NCBI GenBank assembly: GCA_963509895.1 | Contig: CAUPCW010000003.1 | Location: forward strand, 31,575-95,574 | DNA from: an uncultured Flavobacterium sp. | Lineage (GTDB): Bacteria > Bacteroidota > Bacteroidia > Flavobacteriales > Flavobacteriaceae | DNA length: 64,000 nt | Reading direction: 5' to 3' | Shown: in pieces, positions 3,469 to 17,434 of the stretch | Position numbering within the stretch: the stretch's first letter is position 1 | How the letters are laid out: every line of letters starts with the position of its first letter | Translations under genes and position numbers: made by a program | Notes under the pieces: model-generated | Database searches by the model: none | Told to the model about the DNA's origin: nothing | What the model saw: the letters and a program-made list of their open reading frames with translations, nothing else

Positions 3469-3474
3469 GCTTAA

Positions 3475-3791
3475 ACCCAGATTCCGCATTAGAAATCTAC
3501 TACAACTAAATTACTTCACTATTTTAATATTTTTCTAGCGGAGTTCAGTGAATAAATTTCTTCTTCAAAACCAAGAACTTTTTTCACGCGTTTATATTTT
3601 TTTCTGGTGTTCAAGATACGCTTCGATTAGTTCTCCTATTTTTAAATTCAAAATACAAAAGTATTAGCTCATTGGTTTATATGTATATAGGTATTCGCTG
3701 AACGTTGTTTCCTTCTCCAGAAATAGTCCGTGAGCTCTTGCTTTTATTGAATAATTCAGTTTAGCTACGAAGTCTAATGCGGATTCTGGGT
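3475..3791. mobile_element. 317-bp MITE-like / IS-remnant element with 19-bp terminal inverted repeats
   Basis: ACCCAGATTCCGCATTAGA (3475-3493) versus TCTAATGCGGATTCTGGGT (3773-3791), 18/19 match; TAA directly flanks both ends; no long ORF inside. Confidence 0.7.
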
Positions 3792-3855
3792 TAAAACGAT
3801 TCTACTACTTGAATGCGTATACTTGGTAGTTATCACTTGTAATGTACGGTAAAAT

Positions 3856-5355
3856 ATGGATAAAAATAAAACAAAAGCGTTTAATCCTAGAGAATATATG
3901 GAATTGGCGATAGTAGAAATGCACAAGTCCATTCAAGAACCACGTCAGGATAAAGTAAGTCCCAAAGTTGGTGCTATTTTAATACAACCCAATGGAGCAA
4001 TAGATACAGCTTACCGGGGAGAGTTGCGGCATGGTGACCATGCTGAATTTACACTATTGGAAAGGAAACATCGAAGTGACAAGGTTGATGGTTCAGTTTT
4101 ATTTGCAACCTTAGAACCGTGTGCTCCCGGAGCAAGAAAACATCCAAAATTAGGTTGTGCAGAAAGAATAGTAAATGCGCGAATAAAAAAAGTTTACATA
4201 GGAATTGAAGACCCTGATCCATCTGTTGATCGTAAAGGGATACAATTTTTAATTGATAACGGCATTGAAGTGGAAATGTTTGATGCCGATCTTCAAAAAG
4301 AGATAAGAGAAGCAAACAAGCAATTTATAGAAGAAGCAGAAGACAGGGCAAAAGAAGTTCAGAATCATAACAAAGAGGTGTTGCTTTCTGTAACTGAGAA
4401 AGGTTCCTTGAATGCCATATTATCTGACTTGTCAGAAGAAAAAATCAACAAGTTTATTAGTGTAGCAAAACTAAACGTTGACTTTGGTTCGCAGGAGTTC
4501 AATCATATATTTAAACAATTAGGGCTACTTGAAGGTAGTAAAAGCAAGTTAATGCCAACTGGTATAGGATTGTTGCTTTTTGGTAAACGACCCCAATTGA
4601 TTTATCAAAACGCTTTATTGCGAGCAACTTATAAAACCAAAAATAGAGGTGAGAAATTAAAAACTTTTGAAGGGCCAATTATCGATCAAGCCGATGAAGC
4701 TATGAATTGGTTTAAGGAAGTTATTGATAAACAGATTGATCGCTCGGATGCACAAAGGGAAGAAGTTTATGATTATCCTTTAGTAGTAGTAAGAGAAGCA
4801 GTGGTTAATGCAATAGTGCATAGGGACTATGATATTCAAGGAGCTCCTATTTATTTGGAAGTGAACGACGATGCTATTGTTGTTAAAAGTCCTGGTTATC
4901 CTGTGAAACCTATTCAGTTGGAACAAATCCAAAAGTTTAATGCCCCTTCATTGAGTAGGAACCCAAAAATAATGTATGTGTTCGATCAATTGAAGCTAGT
5001 AGAGCAACGAGGGTTAGGGTTCGAAACCATAAAAGAATTGCCTACGAAATATAATTTACCTCTTCCTATAATAACGTATGAAGCGCCTTATTTGGTTTTT
5101 AGTTTTCCGAGAACAATGCAGTCTGTAATTAATGTTACTGCAAACGAATCATTAAAAGGATTGAATAAAGACCAATTAAAAGGATATGAATGGTTGAGAT
5201 CCGTTGGGGAGGCAAGCACAAGAGAATATGCAGTTCAATTTGGAATTGGATATAAAACAGCCCAAAGACATCTTGCGGTAATGAAAGAACTACGTTTGCT
5301 AGAAGATAACGGACTAGAGGTCAATTCACCAAATTATAAATACAAAGTTAACTAA
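3856..5355 (+). CDS. Fusion protein: RibD-like Zn deaminase + HATPase_c_4-type ATP-binding domain + C-terminal winged HTH
   Basis: HAE...TLEPC-x11-C...IEDPDP; REAVVNAIVHRDY...SPG...SRNPKI...EQRGLG; STREYAVQFGIGYKTAQRHL. Confidence 0.8.
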   Translation: MDKNKTKAFNPREYMELAIVEMHKSIQEPRQDKVSPKVGAILIQPNGAIDTAYRGELRHGDHAEFTLLERKHRSDKVDGSVLFATLEPCAPGARKHPKLGCAERIVNARIKKVYIGIEDPDPSVDRKGIQFLIDNGIEVEMFDADLQKEIREANKQFIEEAEDRAKEVQNHNKEVLLSVTEKGSLNAILSDLSEEKINKFISVAKLNVDFGSQEFNHIFKQLGLLEGSKSKLMPTGIGLLLFGKRPQLIYQNALLRATYKTKNRGEKLKTFEGPIIDQADEAMNWFKEVIDKQIDRSDAQREEVYDYPLVVVREAVVNAIVHRDYDIQGAPIYLEVNDDAIVVKSPGYPVKPIQLEQIQKFNAPSLSRNPKIMYVFDQLKLVEQRGLGFETIKELPTKYNLPLPIITYEAPYLVFSFPRTMQSVINVTANESLKGLNKDQLKGYEWLRSVGEASTREYAVQFGIGYKTAQRHLAVMKELRLLEDNGLEVNSPNYKYKVN

Positions 5356-5360
5356 AGAAG

Positions 5361-5494
5361 TTGGACAGTAACTTGGACACATTGTCCAAGTTGTTGGTTA
5401 TTTTGATGCTAAAATCCAATAACTTGGACAGTAACTTGGACACATTGTCCAAGTTGTTGGTGAATTTAAAAGAAGAAAGAATCTAAGTTGGACA
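5361..5494. repeat. Two identical 38-bp direct repeats (period 63), each with a 9-bp-arm palindrome, plus a partial third copy
   Basis: TTGGACAGTAACTTGGACACATTGTCCAAGTTGTTGGT at 5361-5398 and 5424-5461; TTGGACA again at 5488. Confidence 0.9.
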
Positions 5495-5611
5495 TAGTAT
5501 TGAAGTAGTCAGTGTTAAGAAAGACGTAGCCTCTCATTCCGTTTTGAATCATTAAGTAAGGTAACATAGCTACTGGGTGTACATAAATAATTGATTAAAA
5601 AAACATAGAAA

Positions 5612-12503: not shown

Positions 12504-12802
12504 AAGGTTAATCGGTTAATTGTTTAATCGTTTAAAAGTTTAAATTTTAACCGCAAGGGACGCAAAGAATTACGTAAATGTTCGCTAGGAAAAATATGCA
12601 ACTACATGTAAACAAGATTCTATTGGGGGTTTTCAGTTGTCTGTTTTTAGTTATTGGTTATCGTTTGTCGGTTTCTGTTCTCGGTTTTCTGTTAGGGAGT
12701 ATTGATTTTGATAGACGATTGCAACTATAGGGATCATTATTGTGATGAAGTAAAACAAATTTGTTTATTACTTTTAAGTTTCTATTTTTTAAATTTTCGT
12801 TT

Positions 12803-13633
12803 ATGACAAAGCATCAAGCCTTACAGTTATTTGAAGAAAAAAATGTAAGAACCCTTTGGGATTCTGATCAAGAACAATGGTATTTTTCTATTGTAGACAC
12901 GATTGCTGTTTTGACAGAAAGTGTTGATGCTCCTGCGTATTGGAGAAAATTAAAGCAAAGGCTTAAGGCAGAGGGGAATGAAACCGTGACGAATTGTCAC
13001 GCTTTGAAAATGAAAGCTTCTGATGGAAAAATGCGAATGACCGATGTAGCGGATACCGAGCAGCTTTTTCGATTGATTCAATCTATTCCTTCGCCAAAAG
13101 CAGAGCCTTTTAAACTTTGGTTGGCACAAGTGGCTTCGGATCGATTGGACGAAATGCAGGATCCTGAGCTTTCTATTGATAGGGCTTTAGCGCGCTATTT
13201 GCAATTGGGTTATTCGGCAAACTGGATTAACCAAAGGCTGAAAAGCATTGAGGTACGCAAAGAACTAACAGACGAATGGAAAAAAAGGGGGCTAAAAGAA
13301 GGAGTGCAATTTGCTACACTAACGGACATCATCACCAAAGCCTGGTCGGATAAAACAACTAAAGAATACAAGGTTTTGAAAGGGTTGAAAAAGGAAAACC
13401 TGCGTGACAATATGACGAATACAGAATTGATTCTGAATATGCTTGCGGAGGCTTCCACTAAAGATATTTCTCAGGCTGTAAATCCTGAAACTTTTGAAGC
13501 CAATCAATTAGTGGCACAGCAAGGAGGCAACGTTGCCAAAGTGGCTTTGAAAGAGTTGGAAGCTAAAACAGGAAAAAAAGTAGTAACGGCATTGAATGCC
13601 AAATCGCTGGATCAACTGAAATCTGAAGAATAG
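12803..13633 (+). CDS. BRO-N domain (phage antirepressor-like) protein
   Basis: VRTLWD..QEQWYFSIVD, YWRKLKQRL, ASDGKMRMTD, IPSPKAEPFKLWLA; in-frame ATG at 12803 preferred over the track TTG. Confidence 0.85.
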   Translation: MTKHQALQLFEEKNVRTLWDSDQEQWYFSIVDTIAVLTESVDAPAYWRKLKQRLKAEGNETVTNCHALKMKASDGKMRMTDVADTEQLFRLIQSIPSPKAEPFKLWLAQVASDRLDEMQDPELSIDRALARYLQLGYSANWINQRLKSIEVRKELTDEWKKRGLKEGVQFATLTDIITKAWSDKTTKEYKVLKGLKKENLRDNMTNTELILNMLAEASTKDISQAVNPETFEANQLVAQQGGNVAKVALKELEAKTGKKVVTALNAKSLDQLKSEE

Positions 13634-14130: not shown

Positions 14131-14964
14131 TTAGGAAAAGGTAAATGGAGGTTTTACATTTTCGGTAGAGGTTTCTCCTGGGGCAGCATTAGATTCGTTG
14201 GGATGTTTTGGATAATATTGGTAAGCGATCAGGGTTGCCGTGTTGTATTTTCGATGGAGTGGCACGTGTTTACTCCCTTGTTGTTTGGAGAATCCAATGA
14301 ACAAGAAAGTGAGGTGGAGGTCTTGGTCTGTTGGGGGTATGGCTGTAATAGTGACGTCTTGAGGACTAGCGGATTTTGAAAATAATTGAGGTCTGGCATA
14401 GTGAGTGGTATGATGATTGGTTTCAATGTTCCAATTGGCAATCGCTAAACTAAAGGTGATATGAGTGGCATCTACCGGCCATTCGATGTCGGCTGCAAGT
14501 TTGCACTTTGGAAAATGAAAGGTGTCGTCTTTTATTTTCCATTTTTTATTTTTAAGGACTAACGGTAACGGCCGCAAGGTGTTGCTCTCAAAACCTACTA
14601 GCTGCTCTTGTCCGTTTTTGGTTTTTATGCCTTCTGGAAATTGGCGCGATCCTAGTTCGTTGAAGTTGTCATTTTGTAAGATTTCGATAAGTAACTTGTT
14701 TGTTCTGCCTGCAAAGTTGCCATTTTTGGCCTTTTTATTGAATTGCAGCGCTAATAATCTGAACGTTTTGGCAATTGTTGCGCATTGTGCAAATTCTTGG
14801 TTTTGCATTCTCATTTTATGAAAGCAAGGGTCTTTTTAGTATCGTTCAGCCGTTATGCTAGACTCTGCTTTTGTTCTAACACGGTTCACCTTGTTTTCAT
14901 CCAAATAAAAGTTGAGGTCGTTTAGTGTACCTTCTATTTGAAAGGGTGCTATTACTTTTGCCAT
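14131..14964 (-). pseudogene. Conserved Bacteroidota hypothetical protein with an in-frame premature stop
   Basis: ATG at 14964 gives MAKVIAPFQIEGTLNDLNFYLDENKVNRVRTKAESSITAERY*KDPCFHK, in frame with the 227-aa ORF; single TAA at 14838-14836. Confidence 0.7.
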
Positions 14965-16237: not shown

Positions 16238-17434
16238 ATGGAAGATTTATTTAGAAAATACACCAATAAGTTACAACGAGTCGAAACTAATTTTGTTAGG
16301 AGTTTAATTCATGATGTCAATTGGAATGCTCGTCTAATTGGAATTAAAGGCGCTAGAGGGGTAGGGAAAACAACGCTACTGCTGCAGTATATGAAGCTTA
16401 ATTTTAGTGATCAATTGGAGGAGTCGTTATACGTTAGTTTAGACACCTTTGGATTTAAAGATAGGACTTTAGTTGGTTTAGCAGATGAGTTTGTAAGAAA
16501 TGGAGGAAAGTACCTTTTTTTGGATGAAGTTCATAAGTATGAAAATTGGGCACAGGAACTAAAAAATATTTATGATGACCATGCTGAGTTAAAAGTAGTG
16601 TTTACAGGCTCTTCGCTATTGGAAATATTGAATGCTCGGGCTGATTTGAGTAGAAGGGCAATAGTTTATTATATGCAAGGGCTCTCCTTTAGGGAATATC
16701 TTGAAATGGAAACAGGGCAAAAGTTCGACAAAGTATCGTTGGAAGCTATATTGAACAATCATCTGAAGATTGCGACACAGATCAATAGTAAGGTAAAGCC
16801 CTTTCAGTATTTTGAAAGTTATTTGAAGTATGGATATTATCCTTTTTATAAAGAAGATAAGGATTTGTATGAGCAACGGTTGGAAGAGGTTATCAATATG
16901 ATGCTTGAAATTGAGTTGCCTTTATTGAGGGGTGTTGAAGTGGGTTTGGTTCCAAAAATCAAGCAATTGTTAGCTATTATCTCTGAATCCGTTCCTTTTA
17001 TCCCTAATGTGAGTAATTTAAGTCATAAAATCGGCGTAAATAGAGCTACTATGATGACCTATTTGCATTATTTAGAAGAAGTAGGTCTGACTATAAACTT
17101 GCAAAAAGAGGCAAAAGGAACTGTGAAATTGCAAAAACCTGCTAAAATTTATTTAGAAAACACCAACCTAATGTTTGTTCTTTCTTCGTCAAAAGCAAAT
17201 ATTGGTAACGCAAGAGAAACTTTTTTCACCAATCAATTAGGGTATAAAAATAAGTTGAAACATCACGAAAAAACTGATTTTTTTGTAAATGACTTATACA
17301 CTTTCGAGATTGGAGGTAAGGATAAATCCAGAAAACAAATTGAAGGCATTGAAAACGCTTTTATTGTTGTAGACAATATTGAATATGGTTTTCAAAACAA
17401 AATACCACTATGGTTGTTTGGTTTTTTGTATTGA
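16238..17434 (+). CDS. AAA+ ATPase (AAA_14) with DUF4143-type C-terminal domain
   Basis: Walker A GARGVGKT, Walker B LFLDEVH, FTGSS, DLSRR, GYYPF, KIYLENTNL. Confidence 0.88.
   Translation: MEDLFRKYTNKLQRVETNFVRSLIHDVNWNARLIGIKGARGVGKTTLLLQYMKLNFSDQLEESLYVSLDTFGFKDRTLVGLADEFVRNGGKYLFLDEVHKYENWAQELKNIYDDHAELKVVFTGSSLLEILNARADLSRRAIVYYMQGLSFREYLEMETGQKFDKVSLEAILNNHLKIATQINSKVKPFQYFESYLKYGYYPFYKEDKDLYEQRLEEVINMMLEIELPLLRGVEVGLVPKIKQLLAIISESVPFIPNVSNLSHKIGVNRATMMTYLHYLEEVGLTINLQKEAKGTVKLQKPAKIYLENTNLMFVLSSSKANIGNARETFFTNQLGYKNKLKHHEKTDFFVNDLYTFEIGGKDKSRKQIEGIENAFIVVDNIEYGFQNKIPLWLFGFLY

Follow-up and report, generated by a model that had tools for sequence, protein, structure and literature searches.

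A RibD-like deaminase on a Schlafen-type ATPase and winged-helix chassis, with a class-matched 3' site array: a candidate one-gene defence module from Flavobacterium

The DNA analysed here, a stretch of 64,000 nucleotides from an uncultured Flavobacterium sp. (assembly GCA_963509895.1, contig CAUPCW010000003.1, positions 31,575 to 95,574 of the forward strand; hereafter the window), carries at 3856-5355 an uninterrupted open reading frame (ORF) of 499 aa, with an ATG start and a TAA stop, which joins a RibD-like zinc deaminase to a GHKL-type ATPase and a terminal winged helix. A short array of TTGGACA sites follows the gene, and a miniature inverted-repeat transposable element (MITE)-like sequence precedes it (Table 1). 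A preliminary description, made from the sequence alone, had proposed that an effector swap on a known scaffold produced this gene, and that it might encode an undescribed nucleotide-targeting defence or regulatory system.

Table 1. Positions, in window coordinates, of the gene, its domains and the neighbouring repeats
Feature	Position	Strand	Details and basis
Entire gene (499 aa), from the RibD-like deaminase through the GHKL (PF13749) ATPase to the winged helix	3856-5355	+	Pfam, NCBIfam, AlphaFold model, Foldseek
Deaminase domain (residues ~10-168)	3883-4359	+	Pfam PF00383 (3e-11), RibD structure matches, invariant columns, BsRibG alignment
Zinc/catalytic residues H62, E64	4039-4047	+	motif and invariant columns
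Zinc ligand C89	4120-4122	+	
Zinc ligand C101	4156-4158	+	
GHKL-type ATPase body (residues ~178-420): N-terminal subdomain and PF13749 core	4387-5115	+	Pfam, PADLOC, invariant columns, Foldseek
C-terminal winged helix (residues ~430-499)	5143-5352	+	AlphaFold secondary structure, pLDDT 86-94; class co-varies with 3' heptamer
Site unit 1	5361-5389	+	TTGGACA 5361-5367, 5 nt, TTGGACA 5373-5379, 3 nt, TGTCCAA 5383-5389
Site unit 2	5424-5452	+	same composite, 63 bp downstream: 5424-5430, 5436-5442, 5446-5452
Seventh half-site, TTGGACA	5488-5494	+	64 bp past unit 2
MITE-like element, 325 bp	3471-3795		23-nt terminal inverted repeats at 3471-3493 and 3773-3795

The motifs that the preliminary description had named for an intact zinc deaminase are all present: H62-A63-E64, and P88-C89 followed by exactly 11 residues and then C101. 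The domain also has a RibD-like D119-P-D121-P motif. Pfam recognised dCMP_cyt_deam_1 (PF00383) at residues 13-116 and HATPase_c_4 (PF13749, 1.6e-14) at residues 329-406, with secondary matches to the nucleic-acid deaminase families Inv-AAD (1.8e-9) and MafB19-deam (5e-6). The NCBIfam RibD model (TIGR00326) scored 62.4 bits against a curated cut-off of 156.35, and was matched at model positions 16-136 of 343 only. Because this match is confined to the deaminase part, the RibD reductase domain is absent, as had been noted; no RibD_C or reductase match was obtained in Pfam or NCBIfam, and the residues past 168 are GHKL and winged helix. The ATPase motifs of that description are likewise all present: R313-EAVVNAIVHRDY-325 (that is, REAVVNAIVHRDY, residues 313-325), S345-P-G347, R368-N-P370 and G386-L-G388.

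An AlphaFold2 model built from 28 homologues, with a mean predicted local distance difference test score (pLDDT) of 77, comprises a cytidine deaminase (CDA)-fold domain (10-168), an alpha/beta body (~178-420) and a winged helix (438-498) of alpha1-alpha2-alpha3-beta-beta topology, in which the predicted recognition helix spans residues 466-478 (YKTAQRHLAVMKE) and the wing residues 482-498. The PF13749 match and the topology of the model thus bear out the earlier view of a fusion to an ATP-binding domain and a terminal winged helix-turn-helix (HTH), and HTH_24, TrmB and IclR matches were obtained at the C-terminal domain of another family member (P0167). In Foldseek, the top match was DIP2311 (PDB 3lmm), a Schlafen-HATPase_c_4-HTH protein, over 424 columns; RibD deaminase domains came next, with a root-mean-square deviation of 3.0 A over ~150 residues and 24-29% identity. 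A separate search matched the RibD structure 3zpc at 7e-13.

DIP2311 belongs to the Slfn-HisKinase-HTH proteins ('Schlatpase' plus HTH; COG2865), with which the present family has in common the PF13749 GHKL body, the C-terminal HTH, the overall length and a tendency to occupy restriction-modification and defence loci; the difference is that the Schlafen RNase (Ex4ExK) is replaced by a zinc deaminase. According to PMC13056530, this chassis (pSlfn-HisKinase-HTH) accounts for 19.2% of prokaryotic Schlafens. The genome under study itself has two ordinary SLFN_AlbA_2+HATPase_c_4 paralogues (PF04326 at 5e-12 and 7e-14). Residues 217-394 of a Schlafen-type paralogue align to residues 235-409 of the deaminase protein, which places the ~170-residue deaminase module where the ~150-residue Schlafen domain would stand. 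The paralogue alignment and the DIP2311 match support the effector swap suggested earlier, that is, a RibD-derived zinc deaminase in place of the Schlafen RNase on a GHKL-ATPase and winged-helix chassis. Addition of a deaminase before a retained Schlafen domain was ruled out, since Pfam gave no PF04326 (SLFN_AlbA_2, Ex4ExK) match in the 499-aa protein at E <= 0.1.

Variants of ~620 aa (L078, L081, L082, L084, L085 and P0123) carry a ~130-aa beta-rich insert near the equivalent of residue ~227, with neither a Pfam match nor the Ex4ExK Schlafen motif. When the chassis alone (residues 175-499) was searched, every full-length protein among the top 120 matches carried PF00383 and PF13749, so that this chassis is a distinct clade of its own; the few deaminase-less proteins among these matches, 360-438 aa long, are probably truncated. 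This region-restricted search did not recover, in its top 120 matches, the nearest Schlafen-bearing cousins.

The family is large: the same Pfam pair is found in more than 3456 homologues of ~499 aa, under the source labels 'ATP-binding protein' or, wrongly, 'RecG', and 241 clusters at 50% identity reach E <= 1e-30. We collected 78 genome loci of family members, mostly from Bacteroidota, the others from Ignavibacteria, Oligoflexia, Lentisphaeria, Kiritimatiellae, Verrucomicrobiota, Izemoplasma and Bacillales. Across 28 sequences of 61-87% identity, H62, E64, C89, C101, R94, E314, N318, G386 and G388 are invariant, and the D119-P-D121-P loop, S345-P-G347 and S365-LSRNP-370 are invariant or nearly so. 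DHAE and EPC-x11-C are retained in 59 of 66 distinct full-length relatives, and EHCE stands in place of DHAE in one distant subgroup. Purifying selection acts on both enzymatic domains. In two members (L062 and L019), zinc ligands are missing (EPS...GS; Y in place of C101) although the chassis is otherwise intact, and the deaminase domains of these two are probably inactive or repurposed.

No paper came to light in which a deaminase sits on this chassis or in which the 3' arrays are described. The architecture did not turn up as an already named, characterised family, and in this sense 'undescribed' was apt. If our reading holds, we are dealing with a large uncharacterised family in which a RibD-derived deaminase provides a new effector chemistry on a known Schlafen-type chassis.

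The question arises as to what such a deaminase would act upon. In B. subtilis RibG (BsRibG), K79 is salt-bridged to the 5'-phosphate of the substrate, and D101 and N103 bind the ribose 2'/3'-OH (PMC8256712). In a HMMER alignment, K79 corresponds to the invariant R94, and D101/N103 to D119/D121, so that N103 is substituted by D121 at a ribose contact position. The zinc loop is three residues longer than that of RibD (PC-x11-C versus PC-x8-C), adding K95, H96 and K98. The most likely substrate would be a free 5'-phosphorylated ribo- or deoxyribonucleotide; it is from the retained RibD ribose and phosphate contacts, and from these solely, that the epithet 'nucleotide-targeting' would derive.

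RibD/RibG is the closest family both by sequence and by fold, with a shared CDA fold, HAE and TLEPC motifs, DPxP ribose loop and basic residue at the 5'-phosphate position, and a housekeeping role in the riboflavin pathway, as a split or regulated RibD, has to be considered. The canonical ribD of this genome (contig C97:9907-10869 (-), 319 bits) has an intact deaminase ORF and one in-frame TAA near the deaminase/reductase junction, which leaves ORFs of 182 aa and 163 aa; a split gene, a pseudogene and an assembly error would each account for this. This TAA would speak for a second, riboflavin-related deaminase. However, the gene studied here falls below the family cut-off (62 versus 156 bits) in a genome that has a separate 319-bit ribD, lacks the reductase, differs in the zinc loop and at N103, and is an accessory gene present in 1 of 24 congeners. 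It has no riboflavin context either: no riboflavin gene is found among the families listed for the immediate neighbours (64 upstream and 59 downstream loci), which are restriction-modification, defence and assorted housekeeping genes, so that homologues are not limited to riboflavin operons. We therefore reject a riboflavin role, to which we give hardly any credence.

Two defence enzymes, the dCTP deaminase of Tal et al. 2022 and the AvcD of Hsueh et al. 2022, are reportedly single-gene anti-phage effectors that deplete the nucleotide pool, and are said to combine a CDA-fold zinc deaminase with a nucleotide-binding regulatory (kinase/P-loop) domain. A pool-depletion mechanism is proposed here by likeness to them. 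The present protein nevertheless belongs to another deaminase clade, RibD being closest, and the PADLOC dCTPase model matched marginally, at the zinc motif only (E = 0.016). Its partner domain is GHKL instead of kinase/P-loop, and the other enzymes are not known to have a DNA-binding tail or a cognate array. Cad1 (CARF-adenosine deaminase, cited in PMC13462974) and RADAR RdrB are also ATP- or signal-gated immune deaminases activated by oligomerisation. Both, however, are adenosine deaminases of the amidohydrolase fold; their trigger is cyclic oligoadenylate or RdrA, and they are not known to read DNA sites.

The second conserved part of the locus is the array, which begins 5 bp past the stop codon. 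Its half-sites, on the (+) strand, are TTGGACA at 5361, 5373, 5424, 5436 and 5488, and TGTCCAA at 5383 and 5446. They compose two A-5nt-A-3nt-A' units, contained in 50-nt repeat units (5355-5404 and 5418-5467) that lie 63 bp apart, with a weaker third. The same geometry recurs in the family: same-sense sites are 61-64 bp apart in 46 of 72 non-redundant loci, exactly 63 bp in 32, and the full triple unit is found in 36. Among the 71 loci having any site, 51 have the first one at most 20 bp from the stop codon. When ten 3' flanks spanning 38-78% protein identity and five site classes were aligned, the only invariant columns were six GGACA/TGTCC cores, in exact register. The direct half-site A1 varies in step with A2/A', which a simple hairpin does not explain.

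The three variable bases of the heptamer follow the class of the winged helix: GYKTAQRHL..NSPNYKY goes with TTGGACA, QRTASRHL..KSPKLRY with ATAGACA, KKKAERHL..GPGTYYE with CGCGACA, KKAQRHLFKF..GPSAKY with AAGGACA, DKKAQRHLSKF with CTGGACA, and TKTASRHL..GEKKGTRYF with TCGGACA, while the ARTAEREL class has a non-GACA site. Nearest-neighbour prediction of the heptamer succeeded in 32 of 46 cases from the C-terminal domain and in 18 of 46 from the protein body, a result reached by 0 of 1000 permutations. Pairs with 75-90% identity in the body have a C-terminal identity of 0.70 if they share the heptamer and of 0.38 if they do not.

In the 3.5-Mb assembly, the 17-bp palindrome TTGGACAnnnTGTCCAA occurs at the two array positions only, and single heptamers are near background (524 observed versus ~419 expected). 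In each of nine other genomes of the TTGGACA class, the palindrome was counted 0-2 times, with a spacing of 63 bp wherever two copies are present. A regulon can be ruled out on these grounds. In a count over 49 loci, the 220 nt upstream contained 0 class heptamers, the ORFs 9 and the 220 nt downstream 218, which rules out an autoregulatory operator at the promoter. Integron attC sites, REP/RAYT-like elements and transposon ends were ruled out as well: the units are direct and do not make up a single overall inverted pair, the heptamer tracks the winged-helix class, the sites are at a single locus, and there is no linked recombinase. By its position, class match and uniqueness, the array is best taken as a private, class-matched part of the module. 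The 'operator-like repeat' of the preliminary description is therefore a real repeat, but not a neighbouring operator: it is a conserved component of the module itself and the sole such site in the genome.

The array could also serve a local transcription regulator or insulator, the bound protein terminating, roadblocking or otherwise controlling downstream genes (gmd/fcl here, hsdM elsewhere), with the deaminase as a metabolite sensor or minor enzyme. A winged helix with cognate palindromes is what one would expect of it, and the palindrome of unit 1 is at the same time a terminator-like hairpin (5366-5396, with a T-tail). The array is often placed between hsdR and hsdM, at the point expected for an internal promoter, and 35 of 45 loci have a next gene in the same orientation. 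However, it is from the stop codon that the array keeps a set distance (median 10 bp), whereas its distance from the next gene ranges over 0-1100 bp. Ten loci with a convergent next gene have an intact array, and the neighbours are not conserved. Moreover, sites are absent from the gene's own promoter (0 in 49 loci) and from the rest of the genome, and a pure sensor would have no use for an invariant catalytic Glu and invariant zinc ligands alongside an intact ATPase. We consider such a regulator unlikely.

Repeats past the stop codon were also seen at related genes. The gene of a Schlafen-type paralogue (contig C4, L003:853-2514; 3' flank L097) is followed, right after its stop, by six tandem ACACTTTTAA repeats (ACACTTTT(TT)AA). 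Among other PF13749 genes, one (L091, genome G014) has GTGGGTAGAAAAG twice and in two (L089 and L092) the repeats measure ~20 nt. The PF13749-HTH chassis may thus in general be followed by repeats close to the stop codon.

Composite sites of the same kind are present in phage genomes. A scan of IMG/VR with the pattern A-N5-A-N3-A' returned 48 viral contigs for A = TTGGACA, 39 for ATAGACA and 5 for CTGGACA, versus 2 for a scramble of the same composition. An extra same-sense half-site at +62/63 accompanies 13 of 58 non-redundant viral sites, and in several of these it is the extra half-site that overlaps the start codon of the next gene. Most commonly, the composite follows the stop of a gene for a gp32-like single-stranded DNA-binding protein (SSB; ending in ..DDLPF; phrog_224/1192) by 9-26 bp and precedes a UvsX-like recombinase gene (phrog_97) by 34-56 bp. 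Two near-identical phages (L125 and L158) differ only in the site class at the same spot, and four others (L103, L129, L119 and L139) have two or three NNNGACA classes stacked in tandem, often in the ssb-uvsX spacer. The viral sites may be targets, decoys or operators of another phage factor.

That phages keep these sites at fixed syntenic spots and swap their classes, as in L125 versus L158, would suit a selfish or addiction cassette, or a phage-derived regulator, of no benefit to the host, gene and array then persisting by moving together and the phage sites being operators of a phage factor with the same specificity; the patchy distribution of the gene and its insertion in unrelated loci would be expected as well. 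Against this, no family member was found on the 2.9 million viral contigs of IMG/VR in the pattern scan. The 92 site-bearing viral loci encode no homologue and no matching winged helix, a hidden Markov model of the C-terminal domain giving nothing better than E = 0.05, and GenBank phages yielded no homologue over >47% of the length. Furthermore, no transposase or integrase travels with the gene, and two enzymatic domains are under purifying selection. We regard this account as improbable.

Alternatively, the protein could be a site-directed nucleic-acid editor, in which the deaminase, anchored by the winged helix on DNA (or on the hairpin in RNA or single-stranded DNA), acts on nearby cytosines; the effect would be targeted mutagenesis or damage, in site-bearing phage DNA or in adjacent host genes. 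A sequence-specific reader fused to a CDA-fold enzyme, phage sites lying in replication and recombination modules between ssb and uvsX-like genes, and the secondary Inv-AAD and MafB19-deam matches would all fit, and CDA-fold lineages have previously shifted from nucleotide to polynucleotide substrates. The best match in sequence and fold is nevertheless RibD, a free-nucleotide enzyme whose ribose and phosphate contacts are retained, and we hold an editor to be unlikely.

The neighbourhoods of the relatives bear on function. One member, 78% identical (P0006), has a Septu pair (PtuA 2.5e-118, PtuB 1.2e-68) on one side and a type III restriction enzyme (2.5e-299) on the other; another, also 78% identical (P0007), adjoins an AriA/OLD/GajA-like ATPase. 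The nearest upstream ORFs in 64 loci include ResIII (7), EcoEI_R_C (6), Eco57I (4), N6_Mtase (3), GmrSD (2) and RhuM (1); the nearest downstream ORFs in 59 loci include HsdM_N (5), N6_Mtase (5), Eco57I (5), HsdR (2), AAA_15 (1) and HipA (1). Restriction-modification genes represent about a quarter of the immediate neighbours in the 64 loci, and the neighbours not listed here are unrelated housekeeping genes, including one gmd, as at the present locus. Several upstream hsdR-type ORFs end 0-12 bp before the family gene, which suggests an operon. A defence role is likely, though the evidence for it is circumstantial.

In the window, the gene is flanked by glycan genes, with a GT2 glycosyltransferase and an epimerase upstream, and gmd, an fcl-like epimerase, a nucleotidyl transferase and a GT4 glycosyltransferase downstream. 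In one congener (G012), 15 bp separate the end of the epimerase-like gene from gmd; in the present genome the gap is 2143 bp (3469-5611) and contains the MITE, the gene and the array, the boundaries of the insertion being approximate, as the flanks of the congener are only ~67-80% identical. The one congener out of 24 with a family member has a protein 41% identical to this one and a different site class. On present comparisons, the gene is a horizontally acquired, mobile and accessory one. The MITE reported earlier is real, with at least six further copies in the genome (76-94% identity; contigs C30, C44, C16, C24, C131 and C57); it is an independent dispersed element inside the same 2.1-kb insertion and lies outside the module.

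The claim that the gene stands alone in a surface-glycan locus was half right: the glycan flanks are there, but two PADLOC candidates lie within 13 kb, PDC-S13, a Bro-N protein (12761-13633 (+), 5e-136), and PDC-S01, an AAA_14/DUF4143 ATPase (16238-17434 (+), 8e-24). Because both interrupt the run of rml and glycan genes, the surface-glycan locus collects defence-type insertions. Three other ORFs of 227-263 aa (203-994, 1041-1814 and 14131-14814 (-)) have no Pfam and no PADLOC match, and the first two sit in the low-GC (25%) left end of the glycan locus.

Taken together, we favour, with somewhat better than even confidence, a DNA-site-reading, ATP-gated nucleotide deaminase that would act as a self-contained, horizontally moving one-gene module against phages or other mobile elements. 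The C-terminal winged helix would read NNNGACA heptamers, here TTGGACA, the two array units offering it sites on the same DNA face, 63 bp apart. Assembly dependent on DNA and ATP would gate the deaminase. There is a precedent for the ATP part in the 'Schlatpase' supradomain, where, according to a preprint, SLFN-pAgo forms tetramers and has its effector activated as a result of ATP binding to PF13749 (bioRxiv 10.64898/2026.05.29.728809). The gated enzyme would most likely act on a free 5'-phosphorylated ribo- or deoxyribonucleotide, and the outcome would most likely be defence by nucleotide conversion or depletion. The phage composite sites would be a cue read by the protein, or decoys that mimic a chromosomal dock. 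Starting from features that were computed (architecture, catalytic and ATP motifs, array geometry, class match, site uniqueness, insertion, defence neighbours of relatives, phage sites), we infer DNA binding itself, the oligomer stoichiometry, the substrate, the trigger and the protection.

Several points weigh against this module reading. PADLOC-DB v2.0.0 gave no full-length match to any system or candidate model, its partial matches being to pAgo and Aga_SIR2-associated models at residues 137-380 (the GHKL region). The gene lies among glycan genes here, and most immediate neighbours are housekeeping genes in the family as a whole. Even the parent chassis lacks a proven sensing role, because the pSlfn-HisKinase fusions tested in the one published panel gave no protection (PMC13056530). 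Co-variation of heptamer and winged helix may partly reflect joint recombination and not binding, because the winged-helix coding segment adjoins the array, and part of the signal may act at the RNA level, because the unit 1 palindrome with its T-tail is a plausible intrinsic terminator. The scrambled control of the phage scan consisted of one pattern only. Finally, a RibD-like pocket is not enough to name the substrate; the zinc loop has three extra residues, and D stands in place of N103.

A more specific model, which we put forward tentatively and think doubtful, supposes an innate sensor-effector in which newly made protein would be caught in cis by the array and held there, as on a dock, as an ATP-dependent inactive oligomer; phage composites would then either recruit the protein and fire its deaminase, or recapture and silence it by way of decoys of several classes stacked between ssb and uvsX. 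If so, winged-helix classes and phage site classes would be engaged in an arms race over short DNA sites, and the winged helix with its array would be a swappable specificity cartridge.

A 3' array with a 63-bp phase and phage-borne copies is not mentioned, by term searches, in PMC13056530 or in the SLFN-pAgo preprint, and we found no published description of sequence recognition of phage DNA, or of DNA decoys, for this chassis. The phage copies suggest one or the other: an innate system that recognises phage DNA by its sequence, or counter-defence by means of decoy DNA. With the private array and a winged helix of matching class, binding, gating and exchange of specificity can be tested directly, and a naturally modular sequence reader joined to a deaminase would be of interest for building targeted deaminase tools. 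If the module reading is true, the widespread Schlafen-type GHKL/HTH chassis, whose sensing logic is unexplained, would have a concrete input, namely short DNA sites in a defined geometry.

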